Of a DNA stretch of 64,000 nt, positions 2,854-59,495 are shown in pieces. Origin of the DNA: a virus. Its lineage: Duplodnaviria; Caudoviricetes. A model generated the notes under the pieces. That model worked only from the letters and a program-made list of their open reading frames with translations. It did not search any database and was not told the origin of the DNA. The stretch covers positions 185,614-249,613 of IMG/VR virus record IMGVR_UViG_3300035522_000179. One strand, written 5' to 3'. The position numbers were made by a program, and so were the translations under genes. Position 1 is the first letter of the stretch. Each line of letters opens with the position of its first letter.

Positions 2854-3567
2854 TTACTGACGATTCAAGCTGCCGCGCAGGATCTTAGAAAGTTTATCAT
2901 TAACTCCCTCGTTCCTCTTTCTCTCACGGGGCTTCTTCATCACTCGGTAACTACAATTATCCCGGTCGATCTTCTCATATTCTGCCTCAACCACATAAGC
3001 CGGAGCATGAGTCTTCGGATTAATCTCACTCTGATTTTTCTTCACCATGGTGGAGAATACACGAATCGGGTCAATCAGGAATACCACCGTCTTAGAGTTG
3101 TGGTCTCCGATTCTCATCATCTTAGGAGAGCACAGTCCTGCAATCTCTCTTGCTGCTGTTGTGCTGATTCCAAGCTTTGCCTTGTAGTCACTGCTGTTTA
3201 AGAATGCTTTCTTATCACCCTTTACATAAACGAAGGAAGATACGGCATCCCAAACCGGCTCCTGCAAATTTGCAAGCTCTCTGTTTTCATCGTTCTGGAA
3301 CACTTTCATTACATGGTCTCCAGATTCACTGGTTCTCTTCTTGATTGCTTCCTCAGGAAGAACCGCTACGAAAGGAGCGAACTTCTTGGAATAAGGCATA
3401 CTGATCAAAGTGATCTGCACATCTTCGCAATTGCTCCCTTTCTGTCTTGCAGCGTTAATCATCATATTGATTCTTTGCTGCAGAAAATCTCTTACATCGT
3501 TCGTAGTGAACTTGTAAGTCTCAACAGTTTCAATCGGTGAATATCCGATTCTGTTTGTGTCGCTCAT
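2854..3567 (-). CDS. hypothetical early protein
   Basis: 237 aa, strong RBS (aaggagg), ATATATTAT promoter upstream and a terminator downstream. Confidence 0.8.
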   Translation of the reverse strand: MSDTNRIGYSPIETVETYKFTTNDVRDFLQQRINMMINAARQKGSNCEDVQITLISMPYSKKFAPFVAVLPEEAIKKRTSESGDHVMKVFQNDENRELANLQEPVWDAVSSFVYVKGDKKAFLNSSDYKAKLGISTTAAREIAGLCSPKMMRIGDHNSKTVVFLIDPIRVFSTMVKKNQSEINPKTHAPAYVVEAEYEKIDRDNCSYRVMKKPRERKRNEGVNDKLSKILRGSLNRQ

Positions 3568-3643
3568 AGTTTGAGCCCTCCTTTAATATAAATGATATGA
3601 TACTCAGATAGGAAATTTTTATCCCTCTGCTATATCCAAGTAA

Positions 3644-3652
3644 ATAATATAT
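3644..3652 (-). promoter_or_regulatory. early-type phage promoter ATATATTAT
   Basis: One of 10 intergenic copies, each oriented toward a downstream gene or transcript. Confidence 0.75.
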
Positions 3653-3702
3653 TGCTCAATCGATTTTTTCGATTACAATCTTGTTATGATTGGTATGCTT
3701 TT

Positions 3703-4473
3703 TTATTTAAAGAAGGAATGTCCAACCTCATCTGTAAACAGATAAGTTCCATAAAACTCTGTGACAGAGTTTGCTGCAAAGTAAAGTGCTCCATTGGTGT
3801 AATCCGGAGTACTTGCATCCAATGCTTCTTCTACTGCTTCTTTTGTTAAATCCGTAATTTCTACAGTGTAGTATCTTCCATCATTAAAGGAAGAACTTGC
3901 ATTTGGATAGGTGAGTGCATCATAGAGATTGTCCACACAACTGAAGGTTTCATCGTTTTCTACACGATTCATAAATACTTGGGCAACGCGAATTTTTGCT
4001 AGTTTCATTTCTTCTTCATTCACGTTATTTCCTTTGTACTTATACTTTTCTCCAGTGACTTCTGCTTCCACAACTCTTAATAGCACATTATAAGTTTCTT
4101 CATCGATTTCCATTCGATATGCTACGGTATCTTCTACTTCCTCTTCTGGAATTTCTTCTATAACAGGTTCGAAGATTTCATCTCCCTGTAATTCCATGAA
4201 ACTAGGATCTGCCATAATTGCATGATTGTAATACAATTTGTTTGTGACGACAACTACTTCGGAAGTAATTGGTTCACACTCTTCTTCCGGCGTAATCTCA
4301 ATAATTTGAGATTTGGTATGCCCAAAGAAATCTGTTATGTTTGAATACGTAGTGAATGCAAAAACGAATGATAACGCAAAAACAAGTTGTACCATAGATA
4401 CTCTAAGTAGTACCTCGATTTCATAGATGTCTTTCATGATGTTTCTCGGGTTTCGCATGTATGCGTTGTTCAT
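3703..4473 (-). CDS. membrane-anchored cell wall hydrolase (Hydrolase_2 / SleB-CwlJ family)
   Basis: N-terminal hydrophobic segment, then LLRVVEAE (catalytic Glu), VAQVFMNRV, DYTNGALYF and GHSFFK. Confidence 0.8.
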   Translation of the reverse strand: MNNAYMRNPRNIMKDIYEIEVLLRVSMVQLVFALSFVFAFTTYSNITDFFGHTKSQIIEITPEEECEPITSEVVVVTNKLYYNHAIMADPSFMELQGDEIFEPVIEEIPEEEVEDTVAYRMEIDEETYNVLLRVVEAEVTGEKYKYKGNNVNEEEMKLAKIRVAQVFMNRVENDETFSCVDNLYDALTYPNASSSFNDGRYYTVEITDLTKEAVEEALDASTPDYTNGALYFAANSVTEFYGTYLFTDEVGHSFFK

Positions 4474-48448: not shown

Positions 48449-49441
48449 ATGGAAATTATTGATCTTGATAAATCCTGTACTATCAAATGGAGATTAACTG
48501 ATGCATGTAATTACCATTGTAGTTACTGTATCAGAAGACCATTTATCACAGATCAACCCAGTGGTCTTTTGGATATGAAGGAGTGCGAAGATGCCATTCC
48601 TCAGATCTGTAGAATTTCAGAAGAATTAAAAGAAATCAATCAAAAGAATGTAAAGATTGATTTGATTGGTGGAGAGGTTGCGATCTATCCAAGACTCAAT
48701 AAGATTCTGGATAGACTCTATCAGTGCGATGCCATTGGTAGTGTAAATATCACAACCAACCTCTTTAATACTGTAGAGTATTATCTGGATCTCTTTTCGG
48801 TTGCGGATAGTTACAATAAGTCTCTTTCTATGACAGCAAGTTTTCACATTGAATTTGCGAAGTTGGATGAGTTCATTGAAAAATCAAAAGCAATCAATGC
48901 AAAGTATCATCCGAAGTTTAAATGTGAAACCGTTGTGACGCCGATCAATACTCAGTATCAGGAGTTCATTGATCTTTGTGAAGCAAACGATATCTACTAC
49001 ATGGCAGAAGAGGATCTCTTTAACCAAAACTACCGTGGACAGAAGTTATCTAATAAGAAAACTGCTCCAAGATATCTAGTAAAGGACGACTTTGGAAATG
49101 AAGAGTATTTCAATACCAGAAATGAGTACTTAAAGAAGTATGGTGTGAATGGATACTGCATTCCTTCCAGAGGTGGAAAGTGTACCAGAGATATGAACTA
49201 TGTTTACATTGAAAAGAACGTTGTATTTCGATGCACTGATCAGGTTCCTATCGAGAAGTTCCATGTGAGCAAGGAACGTAGAACTTGTGTAAGGGATTCT
49301 TGTACTTTGTGTGGGCATATGAGTATTTCCATACCGAAAAGGAGTACCATTGCAAAGCAGGAGTCCGTTACCAATGAAACTCAGAAACCTACAAAAAAGA
49401 AAAGTTACTTGGACGAATGTCCTAGAGTCGATCGACTCTAG
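48449..49441 (+). CDS. radical SAM enzyme with Cys-rich C-terminal (twitch/SPASM-like) extension
   Basis: WRLTDACNYHCSYC, LIGGEV, ITTN and ASFH; C-terminal C...C...C...CxxxxCxxC. Confidence 0.85.
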   Translation: MEIIDLDKSCTIKWRLTDACNYHCSYCIRRPFITDQPSGLLDMKECEDAIPQICRISEELKEINQKNVKIDLIGGEVAIYPRLNKILDRLYQCDAIGSVNITTNLFNTVEYYLDLFSVADSYNKSLSMTASFHIEFAKLDEFIEKSKAINAKYHPKFKCETVVTPINTQYQEFIDLCEANDIYYMAEEDLFNQNYRGQKLSNKKTAPRYLVKDDFGNEEYFNTRNEYLKKYGVNGYCIPSRGGKCTRDMNYVYIEKNVVFRCTDQVPIEKFHVSKERRTCVRDSCTLCGHMSISIPKRSTIAKQESVTNETQKPTKKKSYLDECPRVDRL

Positions 49442-49724: not shown

Positions 49725-52145
49725 TTAACGATTGATTACCATCGAAATGACGCAATCTCCCTTAGGACATTTGATCATCTTCTCGGCTTTTGACACTCTA
49801 AGTTTCAACGGAATATCATTTACACTCAAAGTTTCCGGATTTGAATTCTTCTTAAAGAACGTAAGCTTTTCATTTCCTTTTACAGACTTTACGGAAACCA
49901 GATATTCATTTCCATCCAGGTTCACCAAACACAACGGTTCATCCTTTTTCTGCATCGTAGGGAACAGCTTAAGCTCCGTCTTTTTCACTTTACCAGAGGA
50001 AGTTACATACACTAAGAACTTATCATCCGATTCCATGAGATTCGCACCAACGATGTTCTCTCTGGATATCAAGTTGACAATCTTAGAACCTTTACTTCCA
50101 GGGAGTTGCAGAGGAATATCCTCTAGCTTCAAACGAACTCCATTACCAAAGTCGGTAAACAGAATCAGTTCTTTCTTAAGGTCTGCTACACAAATCGCGA
50201 CACTGAGTTCATCATCGTTATTTAAGATGAGTGCATTTCCAATAGGAGACTTAGTTGTCTTGTCAGACTTAAGCATTACGGATGTCAGAACTCTCTTTGC
50301 AATCCCTTTCTTGGTAATGCATACATACTGATATTTCTCAGTGGTCTCTGCAATCTTAGGAGCAATGGATACGGACACTACCTTTCCATTCTCTACTACA
50401 TCAATAAACTTATTGATTAAGATTCCAGGATCTTTCTCTTTCAAAAGAGGAATCTTAGAGATTGGTAACAAGAACACCTGCCCAGCACTATCAAAGATCA
50501 CCAGTGTATCACTATCTCTTGACTGAATCGGCATAATCGGTGTATTCTTTGCTTTGGTCACATATCCCATCAATGTTCCATCATTTGCAATCTTCTTGAT
50601 GTAACCATCTTCGGAAATGCCAACCACAACCTCTTTATCTGAGATGATCTCATTCTCATCGTTGATAATTCTGGACTTTCTGGGTGTGCCGTACTTATCA
50701 ATTCCTTCTTTTAGCTCTCTAATAATCTCCTTATCAATTTTACCATCAGACTTAAGAATCTCATTAATACGGTCGATATCATTTCGAAGCGCCTCCTTCT
50801 TTTCTACGTATCCTTGATAAGCATCTTTCGTAAATGCTGACGTAGGAAGACCTGCAATGATTCCAGCTTGTAAACTACTGATGTTATAGGTCTTCATCAA
50901 CCGCTCAATGTAAACTTTCTTATTCTCTGACGTTCTGGAAATCTCAAGCGTCTTATTCAAGTTGTCTTTACCAAAGATAAAGAGCTTGATATCATTGATG
51001 TGCTCTTCCTCCAATAACTGCATCAGTCGGTTGTTAAAGGAGGAACGAAGAGTATCTCTTCTGTAGTCAATCCAACTTGTCAGGAAAGATCTTACGGAAT
51101 ACTCATACGAGATGTAATCATCAATCAATGTGATGGAAGCGCCATTGGTCTTCTTTAACATTGCTTTTGATTTGTAGAGTCTCTCCAGTACATCTTCTGG
51201 ATTTGCTTTCGGATCCAGAATCACTTGTAAGATCAATCCATCTTGGTCTGTAGTTCTATCGTTTACTTCTTTGATCTCAGGAAACTTTCCTGCTAACCGA
51301 AGTTTCACTAATGCTGATACAATCATTCCAGTACTTGTCTGCATCGGAATCGATGTGAACGTAATGATGTTATTGATATGATCAATTTCTGCATGAGCTC
51401 TCATTGTGATCTTTGTATCGGACATAGGATCTTCACACAATGATTTTGCTTGCTTCTTTGTCATAATCAAATCTGCACCTGTTGCTAAATCCGGATAAAG
51501 TAAGATTTTAGATGTCGGATCTTTGATCAGTTGAATCGTTGCTTCGCATACCTCTTTAAAATTATACGGAGGGATGTTGGATGCAAACGCATAACCGATA
51601 CTGGAAAATCCACCATTGATAATCCCTACAGGGAACTTTGCCGGTAAGTATTCCGGCTCTACACTTTCTCCAGTGTATGCAACCTTCATATCTACATTCG
51701 AGTTTGCAAAGTCTTTAAAGTAACAGTCGTATGCAAAGTCACTAAGACATACATCCAAATAACGAGGAGCCGCAGGAGCATCCCCTCTGATGGATCCATT
51801 ATTACCAGGTGCATGGATCAAAGGAACGTTATTTACCCATTCCTGACTCAATGCAATGCCAACATCAGAGATCGATACGTCTCCATGAGGGTGAAACTCT
51901 ACTGCATTGGTTGCTGCTCTCGCTAACTTTAACAGGTTGCCATGATACTTCTTTGCGATATACAACCCGTAAAGAAATCTTCTCTCTACGGGTTTCAATC
52001 CATCAATCATAGAAGGAAAGTATCGATACAAATTCTTATTTGCGCCATAAATCTTTTGATAGTCTTCAGCCTTCTCCGCAATATTCGCTGTGTTGATCTT
52101 CTCTTTAAATAAAGAAGGATCTACTTTTTGATTGTTCGTTGCCAT
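49725..52145 (-). CDS. gyrA: type IIA topoisomerase subunit A (GyrA/ParC-like, with beta-pinwheel CTD)
   Basis: DGLKPVERR, FHPHGD, catalytic AAPRY, IPPYN and C-terminal pinwheel repeats. Confidence 0.9.
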   Translation of the reverse strand: MATNNQKVDPSLFKEKINTANIAEKAEDYQKIYGANKNLYRYFPSMIDGLKPVERRFLYGLYIAKKYHGNLLKLARAATNAVEFHPHGDVSISDVGIALSQEWVNNVPLIHAPGNNGSIRGDAPAAPRYLDVCLSDFAYDCYFKDFANSNVDMKVAYTGESVEPEYLPAKFPVGIINGGFSSIGYAFASNIPPYNFKEVCEATIQLIKDPTSKILLYPDLATGADLIMTKKQAKSLCEDPMSDTKITMRAHAEIDHINNIITFTSIPMQTSTGMIVSALVKLRLAGKFPEIKEVNDRTTDQDGLILQVILDPKANPEDVLERLYKSKAMLKKTNGASITLIDDYISYEYSVRSFLTSWIDYRRDTLRSSFNNRLMQLLEEEHINDIKLFIFGKDNLNKTLEISRTSENKKVYIERLMKTYNISSLQAGIIAGLPTSAFTKDAYQGYVEKKEALRNDIDRINEILKSDGKIDKEIIRELKEGIDKYGTPRKSRIINDENEIISDKEVVVGISEDGYIKKIANDGTLMGYVTKAKNTPIMPIQSRDSDTLVIFDSAGQVFLLPISKIPLLKEKDPGILINKFIDVVENGKVVSVSIAPKIAETTEKYQYVCITKKGIAKRVLTSVMLKSDKTTKSPIGNALILNNDDELSVAICVADLKKELILFTDFGNGVRLKLEDIPLQLPGSKGSKIVNLISRENIVGANLMESDDKFLVYVTSSGKVKKTELKLFPTMQKKDEPLCLVNLDGNEYLVSVKSVKGNEKLTFFKKNSNPETLSVNDIPLKLRVSKAEKMIKCPKGDCVISMVINR

Positions 52146-52157
52146 GTTTGTTTCCTC

Positions 52158-54629
52158 CTAGTTATCCAAATCATCCGGTTTGATATGGTACTCTCGCATC
52201 ATTTTCTTTCGAAGCTCTTTGTCTTTCTTCTTCTTTCCATGAAGTACATCAAAGACTTTCATCTCTTTCTTAAGATCTTCGGAAGTAAGCTGAATGAGTA
52301 CTCTAGAATAAGGATCCAGTGTTGTAGCATACAAATCTTCCGGAGTCATTTCTCCAAGTCCCTTAAAACGCTGGGAGATCTTAGGAATGTACTTCTGATA
52401 TCTTTCCGTAAACATTCCAATCGAAAGATCTTTCACTGGTTCATTATTCTCTTTCACTAATAATGTATAACCGTATTTCTTATACGTATCCAGCAAAGGA
52501 GTAATCTTTCTCATAAACTTGGAGTTTAACTCAATGGATCCAAAGTGTCCTTCTGCAACACCAAACAAAGCACAATCCTTATCATTAAACTTAATTTCCG
52601 GATAGAGCTTCTGAATAGTTGCCATCAGCTCCGTAACGAACTTCTGGTCTTTTAATCTTTCTCCAATATCAAACGTAGAATCAATGGTCGGATATTTCCA
52701 AACCAAGAAGGATGCAACTCGCTCAATCAAAAACTTGCTAATTCGGTAATGATTAGAAACCGAAGACAAATCTCTTAAATAAGATTCGGTATCAAATAAG
52801 AACTCTTTAAAATCTTTCTTATTGATAAATTCCTTTCCATGTGCAAGAATTGCAATCTCATAGTTCTTTACGACCTTATCCAAATAAAGGTCAACATACT
52901 CCTCCTTATCGTGAACAAACTTTTCTTTGTTACCGTCTTTAATTTTATAAAGAGGAGGAAGTGCTTTGTATAGATATCCTGCTTCTACTACCTGCGGTAA
53001 GCATTTCATAAAGAATGCCGCAATTGCAGAAGTAATTCCAGAACCATCAATATCTGCATCTGTTAAGATGATAATCTTATTAAAGTAAAGCTTTGACAAA
53101 TCAAAGTTCTTTCCAATTCCACAACGAAGTACTTGAACGAACGTTCTCCATTCCTTATTACCAGACTCTGGATCCATCATCTGAACCAAAGACTTATTGT
53201 AAGGATTGGCTGTCATACCACGAACTGCAAAGAATGCCTGAAAATTCGGATCTCTTCTTCTGGATGCACTACCCTTTGCGGAGTCACCCTCGACGATGAA
53301 GATTTCCCGGTAGTCATTCTTTCCCGTATTCAAAGCTCTGTCATAGTTTGGAATCTGTTGTTCTTTGATCGAAGTCATGGTTTCTTTTGCTGTTGCAACA
53401 CGTACTTTGTTTGCTTCAATACGAGCTTTTGCATTTCCTTTGACCAGTTTCACAATCGCTTTTAACTTATCTGGATTTTCCTCAAAGTACTTTACGATCT
53501 CTTCCGAAATTCCTGCACTCATAATGGGTGTCAGAATCTTTGCATTGATCTTTTCCTTTACGTTTCCTTCAAACTGTACGTTTGCATTGGTATTCAAATA
53601 CACTACCATCTTAAGACCCTGACGAATATCATTCCAGAGAATGTCGATCTTTTCTTTCTCTTTGTCCGTCATAGAATCTTTGATTGCTTTCTGAATGTAA
53701 TTACAAAAAGCTTTCTCAGCCGCATCCACATGAACACCACCTTCTGTGGTATTTGCAAAATTACAATAAGAATCATAACAAGGATCCAGACTATCATCAT
53801 AAGCAATCATCACTCCATAAGTAGCTCTTCTGTGTTTGATTACTGTAGGAGCATCAATCTTACTATCGGTATTGATTACTTCCTCATCAAACTCATCGGA
53901 TCTTACAAAATGAATCGGTTTAATAATGATCTCATCCGAACAGATATCTTCAAGAAGTCCAATTGGATCTCTCTTTTCAAACTTCCGTTTGGTGATTACC
54001 TTAAGACCTTCTCTGATCTCAAAGTGAATCTTTACATGGTCTGCAATAAAATACGAAATCTTCTCTACCCATGTCTCAATGGTATCCACCGGTAAATGCG
54101 CAGTTGCTCCCAAAAACTTCTTACTGGGAATCATCTTCGTATACATTCCATGTTTCTTATCTTTCTTGGTAAGAGGTCTCTTTTCATCTAAGACCTTCTT
54201 TCCTAACTGAAATGAGATCGTATGAACAGTCTTTTCTTTCTCACGAAAAGAGGTCATCGTAAACTCATCACTTAATGCATTACAGCAGGTAATTCCAATG
54301 CCAAACTCTCCAGCAGAATCACTTCCTGCATCTCTCATAAATTTGGAACCTGACTGTAATTTGGTACAACAAATATCAAGAGGATAGTCATCTTCTGGAA
54401 TTCCTCTTCCATCATCTTCTACGACAACGGAATCCTCTAACTTATCACAAATGATAACAATATCACTGCCGTTTGATTCCGGGTCAATGACTTCATCTAC
54501 ACTGTTTTGTACCACTTCTTTGGTAAGATGAAATTCCCCTTCTGGACCATAGCTCTTTAGATATAAATTGGTTTTCATTTGAATCTTTTCGATGTCATCT
54601 TCGATGTACATCATCTTTGCATCTGCCAT
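52158..54629 (-). CDS. gyrB: type IIA topoisomerase subunit B
   Basis: EVVQNSVDE, DDGRGIP, EGDSA, TDADIDG and RFKGLGEM. Start revised to MADAK; AACA-N6-TA at 54707-54718. Confidence 0.92.
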   Translation of the reverse strand: MADAKMMYIEDDIEKIQMKTNLYLKSYGPEGEFHLTKEVVQNSVDEVIDPESNGSDIVIICDKLEDSVVVEDDGRGIPEDDYPLDICCTKLQSGSKFMRDAGSDSAGEFGIGITCCNALSDEFTMTSFREKEKTVHTISFQLGKKVLDEKRPLTKKDKKHGMYTKMIPSKKFLGATAHLPVDTIETWVEKISYFIADHVKIHFEIREGLKVITKRKFEKRDPIGLLEDICSDEIIIKPIHFVRSDEFDEEVINTDSKIDAPTVIKHRRATYGVMIAYDDSLDPCYDSYCNFANTTEGGVHVDAAEKAFCNYIQKAIKDSMTDKEKEKIDILWNDIRQGLKMVVYLNTNANVQFEGNVKEKINAKILTPIMSAGISEEIVKYFEENPDKLKAIVKLVKGNAKARIEANKVRVATAKETMTSIKEQQIPNYDRALNTGKNDYREIFIVEGDSAKGSASRRRDPNFQAFFAVRGMTANPYNKSLVQMMDPESGNKEWRTFVQVLRCGIGKNFDLSKLYFNKIIILTDADIDGSGITSAIAAFFMKCLPQVVEAGYLYKALPPLYKIKDGNKEKFVHDKEEYVDLYLDKVVKNYEIAILAHGKEFINKKDFKEFLFDTESYLRDLSSVSNHYRISKFLIERVASFLVWKYPTIDSTFDIGERLKDQKFVTELMATIQKLYPEIKFNDKDCALFGVAEGHFGSIELNSKFMRKITPLLDTYKKYGYTLLVKENNEPVKDLSIGMFTERYQKYIPKISQRFKGLGEMTPEDLYATTLDPYSRVLIQLTSEDLKKEMKVFDVLHGKKKKDKELRKKMMREYHIKPDDLDN

Positions 54630-54775
54630 TGGTCTTAGATCCTTTCTTTTAGTTTTTATCAAAATAATAATAAATCAATTAAATAAAAAACAGGCTTTAA
54701 TTGATTTATTATTCTGTTATTCCAATAATAAGATATTATCCCTACCCTTGTAGGGTTATTTAATTTTATATAAAA

Positions 54776-54809
54776 AAAGAAACAGAGAAATTTTTATCTC
54801 TGTTTCTTT
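54776..54809 (-). terminator. intrinsic terminator
   Basis: aaagaaacagaga/tctctgtttcttt stem with a T-run on the minus strand. Confidence 0.8.
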
Positions 54810-55608
54810 CTTTTGGTACTAACCATATTTTTCTTATTATTATGACAAAAGGTATTTTCATTGTAGTCGCGTTTTTGTAGGGACGTCTCTTTAAAATATT
54901 CTTGGTCTTTAGCGAGTAAAGGTTGTGACTACCTTCTGAAAACTCTAAAGAGACGAAAAACACAACTTAATCACACTGTAGGATATGGTCTTTCCGGCAG
55001 TCTAAGTCATGGCTGTGACTTTTTTACCAATAAACACATCTACAGATTTATGTTCAGTAACCGGTAAAGTTTACTGATTGTGTGTATTTTCATATACGCT
55101 TTTTACTTATTCTCCATATAGACAGCTTGGAGGAATGAATCTTAAATAGGAAAGATGACCTTAACCCAAGATTTGAATGACACATCATATTTCAAATCTA
55201 ACAAGACCCCCTAAATGGGTCTGGTTTACATTTAATATCGTGCTTAATCTCCCGGCTCTCTGTGCTCTACGATTAACCCACGAATAACTCACATCGTAAC
55301 AATTTTACATCGTAACAGTTAACAGTTGACATTTTAGAATTATAATTGATTAACTGTCAATTATACATGTATAAATCAGGGTACTCGCCCGATATACACC
55401 TAAATAAGTTATTCTATATGTCTCGAAGAATTTATTTCACTTCGATTCTCCGACCCTCGAAGCCTATTTATTTTCATTTCGTCTATATAGAGAATGTGTT
55501 AGGAAACGTATTTCCTTTCACTTTATCCTTCCTAATTACTTAGAAAGGAGAACCCTTGCACAGTTCATTTCCCATGCAAGGAGCAACCATCTCAGGCACG
55601 TAGCAAGC
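54776..55608 (-). ncRNA. candidate large multi-helix structured RNA (~800 nt)
   Basis: No credible ORF; at least 10 helices, including a 15-bp long-range helix 55109-55123/55481-55495; most imperfect pairs are G.U on the minus strand. Confidence 0.65.
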
Positions 55609-56097
55609 TTATCTCCAGCTTCCCAGACTCGAATAATTATCGTTGTCTCTGTTCTTCTTTTTCTTCTTTACAGATTCTACTTTCTCTGCAATCGAAGCCA
55701 GCTTACGATAGTTCTTCGGGAACAGCTCAATCATAGAGCCCAACTCTGAGAAGTATCTGATATTCTCATTTGCAGTTCCAAGAGCCACAGCCAGATACTT
55801 CGCCTGGTTGTTGATCTCTCTCATTCCTTTAATCTTATTCTCAGCAGCCTCCTTATCATAGGTAGACGGCTTAAACGTACCTCCACACAAACGGCATCTG
55901 CAAACCTTTCCATCGTTATTTCCAATGGTGGGTTTTACTTTACCCTTGTGGTTGGTGGTGTGATGAACACATGCACCGCGCAGGACCTTTGTCTGCTTTT
56001 TGTTCTTACCTTTGATCTTGCCGTGCTTGGTAGTGTTCTCTTTGATGATGGATATTACGGATCCATCTCCTGCTTTATAAATTGGTTTCTTAGCCAT
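55609..56097 (-). CDS. basic Cys/His (putative Zn-binding) nucleic-acid-binding protein
   Basis: 162 aa, very Lys-rich, with ACVHH...VCRCRLCGG; gaaaggag RBS; early promoter upstream. Confidence 0.75.
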   Translation of the reverse strand: MAKKPIYKAGDGSVISIIKENTTKHGKIKGKNKKQTKVLRGACVHHTTNHKGKVKPTIGNNDGKVCRCRLCGGTFKPSTYDKEAAENKIKGMREINNQAKYLAVALGTANENIRYFSELGSMIELFPKNYRKLASIAEKVESVKKKKKNRDNDNYSSLGSWR

Positions 56098-56130
56098 AAT
56101 CTCATGACTCCTTTCGATTTATTCAATATT

Positions 56131-56139
56131 ATAATATAT
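56131..56139 (-). promoter_or_regulatory. early-type phage promoter ATATATTAT
   Basis: Intergenic, upstream of the 162-aa gene. Confidence 0.7.
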
Positions 56140-58337: not shown

Positions 58338-59495
58338 TTAAACCTTATTCCGGAATTTGTTAAAGATTGCTCCGATGTCTACCTGGGTATCTTTCGGAGC
58401 CGACTCAGAATCTCTGTACTTTCTCTTGGACTGTACTTGGGAAAGCATATCGGAATCCAACTCCATATCATCTTCCTTCTTCTTCTGCAACTCATTGATC
58501 TCATCAATACGATCTTTGATCTTCCGGATGCGATCATTGATCGGAGTTAAACCTGAAGCAATGAAGAAGATGTTGTTTGCAAGTTTCCTGTCAGAGTTTA
58601 CAGAAACGTGCTCAAACTCCTCAATGGGAGAACCGATCAACTTCTGTACCTTCGGAACATGGGTGTCGAACTTTCCGAGCATAGAGTCAGAAAGGTTCAC
58701 AATCACACCGGTTCTGTTTACGATGCCATCCATCTGGATCTCCGCCTGAGCGTTCTTCTTGATCTCCGTGATCAACTTATCCTCCAGCGTGATATCATCG
58801 TCGATATCTTTCTCCTTTACATCGAATAAGGAAGCCACGAATAATCTTCCGGCAGTTGCAATCAGTGTCATAGCATCTCTTTCGTCAATGGAATTGTAAG
58901 TGGTGATTCCATTGTAATATCCACGCAGGATATTGATGTCCTCCACAATTGCTTCATTGACTTTCTTAAGCATCTCCACCGTGTAGAGCTTACTCATCTT
59001 GTCATTGTCGTAAAGCATATACGTAGAAGACGTACTGAGCTCATAAAGCTCCTGAAGATAGCTCAAGGAATTTGCCTGAGTAGACAGACCTTCTTTCATA
59101 GTAGGAAGAACTCCAACTGTAATCGGAAGAACCCCGTCAGTTCCATAGATCTCCTGAATTACATTCGAAAGAATGATACTGATTCCAGATCCGGTTCCAC
59201 CACCAGTGCTACTTACAATAAACACAATGTCCAGATCAGCAAGAAGCTGTTTTACCGACTGGTTTGAAACCAATTCTACAATAGAGTCTTCGAGGAATTT
59301 TTTAGCCTCTTCTCTATTCTTACCGGCACCTTTACCGTCACCAATCAAAAACTTCTGAATGGTATTGGGCAAGGATACCATGTCATTCTCGCTGCAGTTA
59401 ATTGCAACGACCGGAATATCAGGATATTTATTTGCACAATAAGCACAAACCTGATTTCCCGTATTTCCGCAACCAATAATACCAACGTTTAACAT
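58338..59495 (-). CDS. tubulin/FtsZ-family GTPase (PhuZ/TubZ-like)
   Basis: GIIGCGNTGNQ, GAGKN, signature GGGTGSG and T7-loop-like SIDERD. Confidence 0.9.
   Translation of the reverse strand: MLNVGIIGCGNTGNQVCAYCANKYPDIPVVAINCSENDMVSLPNTIQKFLIGDGKGAGKNREEAKKFLEDSIVELVSNQSVKQLLADLDIVFIVSSTGGGTGSGISIILSNVIQEIYGTDGVLPITVGVLPTMKEGLSTQANSLSYLQELYELSTSSTYMLYDNDKMSKLYTVEMLKKVNEAIVEDINILRGYYNGITTYNSIDERDAMTLIATAGRLFVASLFDVKEKDIDDDITLEDKLITEIKKNAQAEIQMDGIVNRTGVIVNLSDSMLGKFDTHVPKVQKLIGSPIEEFEHVSVNSDRKLANNIFFIASGLTPINDRIRKIKDRIDEINELQKKKEDDMELDSDMLSQVQSKRKYRDSESAPKDTQVDIGAIFNKFRNKV

Follow-up and report, generated by a model that had tools for sequence, protein, structure and literature searches.

A large structured RNA with tRNA-like parts, probably of a new class, behind a zinc-protein gene in tubulin-encoding jumbo phages

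What fills the 833 nucleotides (nt) that lie between the gene for a lysine-rich zinc protein and the gene for a GyrB-like topoisomerase in a jumbo-phage genome? The window analysed here, a stretch of 64,000 nt, forms the final 64 kb of a virus record that is 249.6 kb long and rated as complete (IMG/VR record IMGVR_UViG_3300035522_000179). On its minus strand, genes for a tubulin/FtsZ-like protein, two proteins of unknown function (347 and 353 amino acids, aa) and a 162-aa zinc-binding protein (hereafter Zn protein) are followed by a tract free of open reading frames (ORFs) and by genes for GyrB-like and GyrA-like proteins. A sequence-only reading had taken this tract for a large ornate RNA in the manner of ROOL and GOLLD, possibly of a new class and partnered by the Zn protein. 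Comparison with related loci makes us confident that the tract encodes a new structured RNA which is real and under selection: it contains no ORF, folds far better than shuffled sequence, has homologous tracts in related phages, is built on covarying helices (P1, H1, Pa and Pb) and is bounded by terminators of the same orientation. To our knowledge, the very large structured RNAs recognised in bacteria and phages are few (GOLLD, ROOL, OLE, raiA and HEARO), most of them of open function. The tract would add a class with comparative support and a readable anatomy, in which some members carry a true tRNA and others a bare anticodon arm.

Parts of the tract in the window (loops in square brackets):
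54776-55608, minus strand: ORF-free tract, 833 nt behind the stop codon of the Zn-protein gene
55585-55598, minus strand: hairpin Ha, NNCC[UGAGAU]GGNN, first half of the 5' module, beginning 13 nt past the stop codon
55553-55582, minus strand: hairpin H1 with octaloop GAAAUGAA (RAAAYGAA), second half of the 5' module
55526-55550, minus strand: pyrimidine tract CUCCUUUCUA, resembling an anti-Shine-Dalgarno sequence, locally paired with UUAGGAAGGA (hairpin H2)
55496-55521, minus strand: hairpin H3, present in all members, with loops GAGUCACA or GCCUCAAAAC in relatives
55481-55495, minus strand: 5' strand of helix P1, AUUCUCUAUAUAGAC, pairing with 55109-55123
55368-55398, minus strand: hairpin UGUAUA-UCGGG[CGAGUAC]CCUGA-UAUACA, equivalent to the 5-bp hairpin with 7-nt loop [CUNAUAC] of the relatives
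55341-55365, minus strand: anticodon-arm-like hairpin with the 7-nt loop CAGUUAA (55350-55356), found at the same place in relatives
55199-55332, minus strand: UGUNA array, six tandem units at 55289-55332 and then two more
55126-55170, minus strand: helix Pa, formed by CUUGG (55166-55170) and CCAAG (55126-55130), with hairpin Pb inside
55109-55123, minus strand: 3' strand of P1, GUCUAUAUGGAGAAU, end of the conserved core
54810-55108, minus strand: 3' extension with several predicted hairpins, including GAAGGU[AGUCACA]ACCUUU, stably folded in the minimum free energy (MFE) structure
54776-54809, minus strand: intrinsic terminator, a 13-bp hairpin followed by a U-tract

A conserved RNA closed by a covarying helix

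Every stop codon occurs 4-14 times per frame in all six frames of the tract. Recoding of a stop codon was thus rejected, and the absence of a credible ORF from the ~830 nt behind the Zn protein was confirmed under any stop-codon reading. The minus strand folds with an MFE of -236.9 kcal/mol, clearly better than shuffled controls (z = -8.5), the plus strand with -201.9 kcal/mol (z = -6.5). The core alone (55105-55600) reaches z = -5.4, and the tracts of two relatives -5.4 (L020) and -6.5 (L025; L numbers denote loci, G numbers genomes). Several helices of the sequence-only reading recur in the MFE structure, namely its 15-bp helix, GAAUAACUU/GAGUUAUUC, UAUAAUUGA/UCAAUUAUA, AGAUUUGAA/UUCAAAUCU and the hairpin at 54884-54955.

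The Zn protein has 17 homologues in public data (37-66% identity), whose loci were fetched; a further locus, L185, was added by means of a DNA pattern. The block of tubulin gene, two genes, Zn-protein gene and gyrB is kept in all fetched loci, and an ORF-free tract of 0.8-1.4 kb lies behind the Zn-protein gene in L005, L006, L017, L018, L020/L021, L023, L024, L025, L026 and L185. Blastn detected no similarity between the tracts of relatives, nor between the window and phage records in GenBank. Despite this silence, alignment of the tracts revealed a shared set of motifs in a fixed order, and a homologous RNA with covarying helices was found at the same position in eleven related jumbo-phage loci, so that structure is conserved downstream of the protein homologues. 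The known members, about 13, belong to one clade of tubulin-encoding jumbo phages. A pattern scan of JGI metagenomes returned 16 matches, of which only L185 was a true member, indicating that the RNA is rare there; the other 15 were chance matches without the module, the P1 partner strand or the array. A first pattern used on IMG/VR was too loose and gave mostly chance matches.

The conserved unit comprises ~500-650 nt and in the window ~500 nt (55105-55600). Hence the ORF-free tract stands as first described, while the length of ~800 nt assigned to the RNA was overstated. An intrinsic terminator of the same orientation trails P1 within ~50-130 nt in L005, L020, L024, L025 and L026; in the window the proposed terminator at 54776-54809 is present with hairpin and U-tract. 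The 3' extension that precedes it (54810-55108) has no counterpart in any fetched relative, so that comparison neither supports nor refutes it. Two helices proposed for this 3' third, UCAGUAA/UUACUGA and the one formed by CGUCUCUUUAGAG, lack support for the same reason. The loop AGUCACA belongs to one hairpin of the window's 3' extension and is carried by H3 in the relatives.

Helix P1 encloses most of the core. In the window it is AUUCUCUAUAUAGAC/GUCUAUAUGGAGAAU, exactly the 15-bp helix of the sequence-only reading, and it is conserved and covaries. Across 14 positions in 10 sequences, 97% of the 140 cells are paired, and nine of the 14 scored positions (3-6, 9-11, 14 and 15) show compensatory changes, for example from AGAC/GUCU to AAAC/GUUU, or to CUAAGUACAC/GUGUGCUUGG in L025; a U.G wobble is conserved in nine of the ten sequences. 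Covariation amounts to 0.62 versus 0.22, a value reached by none of 1000 shuffles, with slid controls at or below 0.15. With 14 G.U and 0 A.C pairs, P1 also bears out the proposal that most imperfect positions are G.U on the minus strand and A.C on the plus strand. Together with terminators and tRNA genes that share its orientation, this asymmetry shows that selection acts on minus-strand RNA rather than on DNA.

Within P1, an interior of 370-440 nt contains several hairpins, the repeat array, an invariant AAAUCC and the helices Pa and Pb. For Pa/Pb, 82.5% of the cells are paired compared with 58.8% after shuffling, and covariation is 0.64 versus 0.24 (0/500 shuffles reach it; slid controls 0.09-0.21). 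The helix CUUGGGU/AUUUAAG of the sequence-only reading competes with the covarying alternative CUUGG/CCAAG, that is Pa, and is not supported. All helices were tested one by one on sub-alignments that were partly anchored by hand; RNAalifold on plain MAFFT alignments gave only few helices. The sequences are few, and the structure inside P1 is resolved in part.

No Rfam family matched the tract beyond chance level at the gathering score or at E ≤ 10 (window 54600-55700; L025 3490-4240), GOLLD, ROOL, introns and ribozymes included, and the GOLLD and ROOL covariance models gave no match at the gathering score in the window and 15 related loci. The proposal of an ornate phage RNA and its novelty therefore stand, whereas identity with ROOL or GOLLD does not. 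We file the RNA, probably a new class, among the large ornate phage RNAs, where it would in kind be most like GOLLD. GOLLD (Weinberg et al. 2009; Kretsch et al. 2025) is likewise phage-encoded, very large and multi-domain, and its RNAs sometimes embed tRNAs (10.1101/2024.12.08.627333; PMC12990946), a trait shared here by L024-L026, the window having only an anticodon-arm-like hairpin. It differs from GOLLD, apart from the missing model match at E ≤ 10, in its 5' two-hairpin module, its P1-closed domain, its UGUNA array and its genomes without tRNA islands. With ROOL (Weinberg et al. 2017) it shares size and ornateness (~500-600 nt), an origin in phages or prophages and the lack of a known protein partner; unlike ROOL, it does not lie near tRNA arrays, its conserved motifs differ and the model does not match. 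Among other candidates, a group I or II intron in the tract was rejected for lack of an Rfam match. The same searches recovered group I introns from the L018 gyrB region and from L008 (5062-5350), which shows that they work on these genomes. A type III antitoxin RNA of the ToxI kind was rejected as well, since the repeat unit is 7-8 nt and not ~34-36 nt, and the neighbours are the Zn protein and gyrB, not an endoribonuclease toxin.

tRNAs, anticodon-arm hairpins and a UGUNA array

Inside the P1 domain, three members contain a complete class-II tRNA: tRNA-Ile(GAU), tRNA-Tyr(GUA) and tRNA-Ser(UGA) in L024, L025 and L026, scoring 45-60 bits (ARAGORN and the Rfam tRNA model). The window holds no tRNA by ARAGORN or Rfam. 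Its hairpin at 55341-55365 gives no cloverleaf with ARAGORN or with RF00005, and none was found in the whole of genome G000. The RNA-bearing genomes G000-G003, which are complete (220-280 kb), are devoid of tRNA genes according to the Rfam tRNA model, whereas the RNA-less G004 has three.

The CAGUUAA hairpin itself is conserved and covaries in the relatives; the pseudoknot that its loop was proposed to form with UUAACUG is not kept there. CAGUUAA is the loop in the window, L005, L006 and L185, on stems that differ and compensate. Elsewhere the loop reads CUUUUAA (L017, L020), AUUUUAA (L023) or CUUUCAA (L018). Most other members combine a stem of 5-6 bp with the 7-nt loop, compared with 9 bp in the window and 4 bp in L023. 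Measured against the features of an anticodon arm (5-bp stem, 7-nt loop, U33, purine at 37), the window has the 9-bp stem and A at both 33 and 37, while L017, L018 and L020 have canonical 5-bp stems. The stem of the neighbouring CUNAUAC hairpin covaries in the relatives, too (CGGG/CCUG, CGUG/CACG, UUGG/CCAG).

The array is C-poor and consists of (A)UGUNA(N) units that repeat every 7-8 nt, 5-12 of them within 130 nt; across the family, each of the four bases is found at N. In the P1 domain of the window UGUNA was counted nine times with 2.4 expected (z = 4.6); ten members have 6-13 per domain with 2.4-3.9 expected (z 1.3-5.8) and up to 12 per 130 nt. The reverse-complement motif is not enriched. 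The array is mostly single-stranded. It includes ACAUGU palindromes, and in the window it is interrupted at 55239-55282 by an inserted hairpin with a GGAG-rich loop. UGUNA corresponds to U33-G34-U35-N36-A37, the signature of the GUN-anticodon tRNAs for Asn, Asp, His and Tyr. In these tRNAs, U33-G34-U35 or G34-U35 is read by bacterial TGT and by anticodon nucleases of the colicin E5 type.

The 5' module here and in other phages

The RNA opens with a module of two hairpins, Ha and H1, that begins 12-45 nt past the stop codon in most members and ~170 nt past it in L009, where the Zn protein is more distant (34% identity) and the module is followed by a different body. Across 16 sequences, CUGAGA and UG(G) of Ha are invariant, while the flanking pairs covary between A-U, G.U, G-C and U-A and the CC..GG of the stem becomes GC..GC in L023; Ha is paired in three of four MFE folds examined. 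All seven pairs of H1 show changes on both sides in the same number of sequences. Its cells are paired in 83.9% compared with 54.4% after shuffling, and covariation is 0.80 versus 0.25 (0/500 shuffles reach it; slid controls ≤0.23). A covariance model of Ha and H1 (R1) gave one strong match in each RNA-bearing genome and only weak matches in the RNA-less G004 (≤19 bits, E ≥ 0.003).

Pattern scans of IMG/VR located the module in unrelated phage records as well, 13-281 kb in size and mostly above 100 kb. Each of the records searched (G005-G009) has one or two strong copies, always intergenic and on the sense strand of the flanking genes. The two copies in G005 share an identical upstream stretch of 60 nt, and each lies ~90 nt before a gene start. 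Loci with a copy are:
L141:3843-3975, beside an RNA ligase (PF09414, 2.5e-21)
L031:4689-4830, beside PTH2 (9e-24)
L158:4162-4470, with a reverse transcriptase upstream and the RNA-repair nucleotidyltransferase RlaP downstream
L132:2583-2667, beside an AAA_5 ATPase
L159:4265-, and L160 (second copy in the same phage)

Searches of the module regions of L031 (E ≤ 1) and L158 (E ≤ 5) gave chance-level matches only and no Rfam family. Hammerhead, twister, pistol and hatchet ribozymes were rejected for the module, since none matched in the window and L025 (E ≤ 10) or, at the thresholds just given, in L031 and L158; read from the sequence, CUGAGAU also lacks the G8-A9 of a hammerhead core. The module is thus a motif that is both portable and undescribed. 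Its association with genes for RNA repair and tRNA functions, though based on few cases, would fit the tRNA theme of the P1 domain, and as a second undescribed motif it could connect these RNAs to conflicts over RNA damage.

In L158 the anti-Shine-Dalgarno sequence of the 16S rRNA 3' end recurs unchanged behind the module, as AUCACCUCCUUU. The same locus, in a record classed as provirus, encodes a 345-aa reverse transcriptase (2892-3929; RVT_1, 7.7e-15) directly upstream of the 310-nt noncoding region that bears the module, and of RlaP; this may be a system of reverse transcriptase and noncoding RNA.

Downstream of the module, all members have a CUCCUUYYU tract, the pairing partner of which, as read from the alignments, is not conserved. 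In several members this tract could plausibly pair with the GGAG-rich loop on the inserted hairpin, but the pairing is inconsistent across members, and we make no claim for it. The codons UGGAGAUAA at the end of the coding sequence (55609-55625) can pair with UCUCC of the tract, so that the end of the Zn-protein gene may be part of the RNA fold. Moreover, H1 together with UUCUCCUUUC (55541-55552) looked terminator-like in a consensus scan and could act as an attenuator of transcription running on from the protein gene into the RNA.

What the RNA may do, and its neighbouring genes

Our preferred interpretation, held tentatively, is a multivalent tRNA-mimic decoy or sponge. The core at 55105-55600, which in this phage continues to the terminator at 54776-54809, would fold into a scaffold that presents many copies of the U33-G34-U35-N36-A37 signature to a factor reading such loops or UGU-containing single strands. 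The leading candidate for this factor would be a host anticodon nuclease or another tRNA-directed enzyme of defence or modification, the second a single-strand RNA-binding translational repressor similar to RegA. The decoy is suggested by the embedded tRNAs, the anticodon-arm hairpins, the UGUNA arrays, the tRNA-free state of RNA-bearing genomes and the RNA-repair context of the module taken together. Phages are known to use tRNAs of their own against tRNA-cleaving defences: where anticodon nucleases such as PrrC, PARIS and Retron-Eco7/PtuAB attack, phage-encoded tRNAs replace or shield those of the host. The displayed loops UUU, UUC, GUU and GUA correspond to tRNA species targeted in this way, and relatives carry real tRNAs at the same place; unlike in those phages, the window and most members have no tRNA but only an arm within a large RNA, and a linear array.

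Three further known systems offer partial parallels. Sponges of the CsrB/RsmZ type also expose many short single-stranded sites on a folded scaffold, but the motif here is not GGA and the scaffold is several times larger and includes tRNA mimics. Bacterial and phage Y RNAs of the YrlA type have a tRNA-like module and belong to RNA-repair operons. They resemble the present RNA as noncoding RNAs that mimic part of a tRNA, and in other phages the 5' module stands beside RNA-repair genes (RNA ligase, RlaP); however, no Y-RNA family of Rfam matched, and the present RNA is 5-8 times larger and mimics the anticodon arm instead of the acceptor and T-arm. The nearest analogue in sequence is the T4 RegA operator: the best RegA ligand from SELEX (systematic evolution of ligands by exponential enrichment), aaAAUUGUUAUGUAA, is unstructured and equals two UGUNA units (PMC3014915).

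Several observations weigh against the decoy. The base before UGU is mostly A and not the Y32 of real anticodon loops, the loop of the window's hairpin has A33 in place of the universal U33, and the enrichment of UGUNA is modest in L018 and L023 (z 1.3-1.5). Genomes G000-G004 contain no gene for TGT (PF01702) or RegA (PF01818), the RegA search having had no positive control. The comparison covers only about 13 members, with parts of the alignment anchored by hand. Finally, reading the motif as an anticodon loop is pattern matching, and an AUGU-type array could have other uses, for example RNA-RNA contacts in an oligomer.

The array with its Asn/Asp/His/Tyr anticodon-loop signature, standing beside tRNAs and anticodon arms, leads to testable hypotheses (decoy, sponge, tRNA storage) that could bear on why GOLLD carries tRNAs. 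A more far-reaching version, which we consider unlikely, is an RNA-based counter-defence that would be the first of its kind: a scaffold with a dozen anticodon-loop look-alikes, UGUNA units together with anticodon-arm hairpins or a real tRNA, would soak up a tRNA-cleaving or tRNA-modifying defence enzyme of the host during infection by the jumbo phage, and the 5' module would be a portable handle that the RNA has in common with RNA-repair loci of unrelated large phages.

Less probable than the decoy, yet the strongest of its rivals, is an RNA-only cage or ring like those of GOLLD and ROOL, in which a tRNA or tRNA-like arm would be stored or displayed while the array and the loops UGAGAU, GAAAUGAA and AGUCACA make RNA-RNA contacts. 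The RNA is of the same size class, comes from phages, has many helices and can embed a tRNA as GOLLD does (10.1101/2024.12.08.627333; PMC12990946); the conserved purine-rich loops are typical of tertiary or kissing contacts, and the array contains ACAUGU palindromes. On the other hand, the GOLLD and ROOL models show no similarity up to E ≤ 10, repeat arrays that are C-poor and single-stranded have not been reported for either, and oligomerisation cannot be inferred from sequence.

The remaining explanations involve the neighbouring genes of the window:
58338-59495, minus strand: tubulin/FtsZ-like gene (Pfam Tubulin, 3e-14)
56131-56139, minus strand: motif ATATATTAT, candidate phage promoter upstream of the Zn-protein gene
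55609-56097, minus strand: ORF of the 162-aa lysine-rich Zn-binding protein
52158-54662, minus strand: GyrB-like topoisomerase gene
49725-52145, minus strand: GyrA-like topoisomerase gene

A ribonucleoprotein seems doubtful to us. In this reading the basic Zn protein, as a dimer or oligomer, would bind the UGUNA array or the 5' module of its own transcript. The protein is as first described, a real lysine-rich ORF with the motif CxHH...CxCxxC, of which C43, H45, H46, C68 and C71 are invariant in 18 homologues. An AlphaFold2 model from the alignment of 18 sequences (predicted local distance difference test, pLDDT, 82.6) predicts a small Zn-binding beta domain at ~43-71, a long helical hairpin (82-105 and 110-147) and a disordered lysine-rich tail ending in G-S-W-K/R. 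Those last residues (G-S/G-W-K/R) are nearly invariant, with the stop codon directly after them in RNA-bearing loci. The modelled Zn knuckle, helical hairpin and tail would be compatible with nucleic-acid binding, and the repeat array would suit an oligomeric binder. In addition, protein and RNA are probably co-transcribed. The promoter-like motif ATATATTAT is present at 56131 as proposed (11 copies in the window versus 2.07 expected) and is a candidate promoter for a joint transcript of mRNA and noncoding RNA. As no further copy lies between the coding sequence and the RNA, and a terminator is absent there too, we infer that one transcript carries the Zn-protein message and, in its 3' part, the RNA. 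A search of public sequencing runs listed no RNA run with the sequence and one DNA run with a small share.

All 12 RNA-bearing loci have the Zn protein adjacent and upstream. Yet at least nine loci (L007, L008, L010-L013, L015/L016 and L029) lack the RNA and still retain the protein in this gene block. In the RNA-less loci read downstream (L007, L008, L010-L013 and L015) a terminator hairpin stands immediately behind the stop codon, and the next gene or gyrB begins 150-300 nt on in L007, L008, L010-L013 and L015/L016 and ~200 nt on in L029. In the protein tree, RNA-bearing loci form two groups, that of the window and a tRNA-carrying one, and a third consists of nine rows that are RNA-less or unknown. 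The RNA-less P0014/L007 falls within the group of the window (support 95/95), on a long branch. Other phages have the 5' module with no Zn protein nearby, and the RNA-less G004, as mentioned above, has only weak R1 matches. No RNA-binding family or fold was matched: Pfam gave only PF23228 (E 0.066, below the curated cut-off), PHROGs only two families of unknown function (E 0.011 and 0.042), and Foldseek against the PDB, VIA-align wide, the ESM atlas and a PDB sequence profile only generic helical hairpins or weak Zn fingers. Support beyond adjacency is absent, and adjacency is explained by shared synteny, since the block is kept in every relative; that the RNA never occurs without the protein upstream is what synteny predicts. 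The proposal that the upstream protein is the partner of the RNA is therefore not supported, and the RNA is probably not its obligate partner. Independent of this question, the tip of the predicted helical hairpin (residues 100-112, ~55762-55800 of the window) has a conserved G-x-G-x-[ED]. Such a coiled-coil hairpin with its acidic tip recalls secondary-channel factors of RNA polymerase of the DksA/Gre type, to which neither fold nor sequence matched.

It is improbable that the RNA acts in cis, by controlling read-through or translation of gyrB-gyrA or the stability of the upstream mRNA, for example as a put/nut-type antiterminator or a long leader. The leader-like position of the two module copies in G005 before two different genes, the terminator-like H1 with its pyrimidine tract and the location between two transcription units would agree with such a role. 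The core, however, ends at its own strong terminator at least 110 nt before gyrB in the window and relatives, a 400-nt domain with tRNA mimics and an array far exceeds known leaders, and relatives without the RNA keep gyrB. Centromeres of TubZRC systems are iteron arrays, and tandem short repeats do adjoin the tubulin gene cluster here; still, a DNA element whose 7-8-bp iterons and inverted repeats serve as replication origin or as centromere of a TubZ/PhuZ-like tubulin system is very improbable, given that compensatory changes preserve long-range and local helices, that G.U pairs occur on one strand only (14 versus 0 A.C), that terminators and tRNA genes share the orientation, that relatives with the tubulin block lack the tract and that a period of 7-8 bp is unlike the DNA helical repeat.

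Some minor observations concern the genes downstream. A small reverse-strand ORF of 41-52 aa lies between the terminator of the RNA and gyrB in four relatives (L017:4127-4285, L018:4199-4333, L020:4279-4404 and L021:4277-4402, all on the minus strand of these loci); L005 aligns across the same stretch, and the window is without this ORF. In several relatives gyrB is split into an N-terminal HATPase fragment, a group I intron and the remainder of the gene (L020:4631-6489, L018:4497-4956, L008:5062-5350 and L007), with an ORF for an HNH endonuclease inside the split gene of L020. Unlike these, gyrB of the window (52158-54662) is uninterrupted. Beyond gyrA, a gene at 48449-49441 on the plus strand encodes a 330-aa protein that matches Radical_SAM weakly (2.8e-05), under the curated cut-off.

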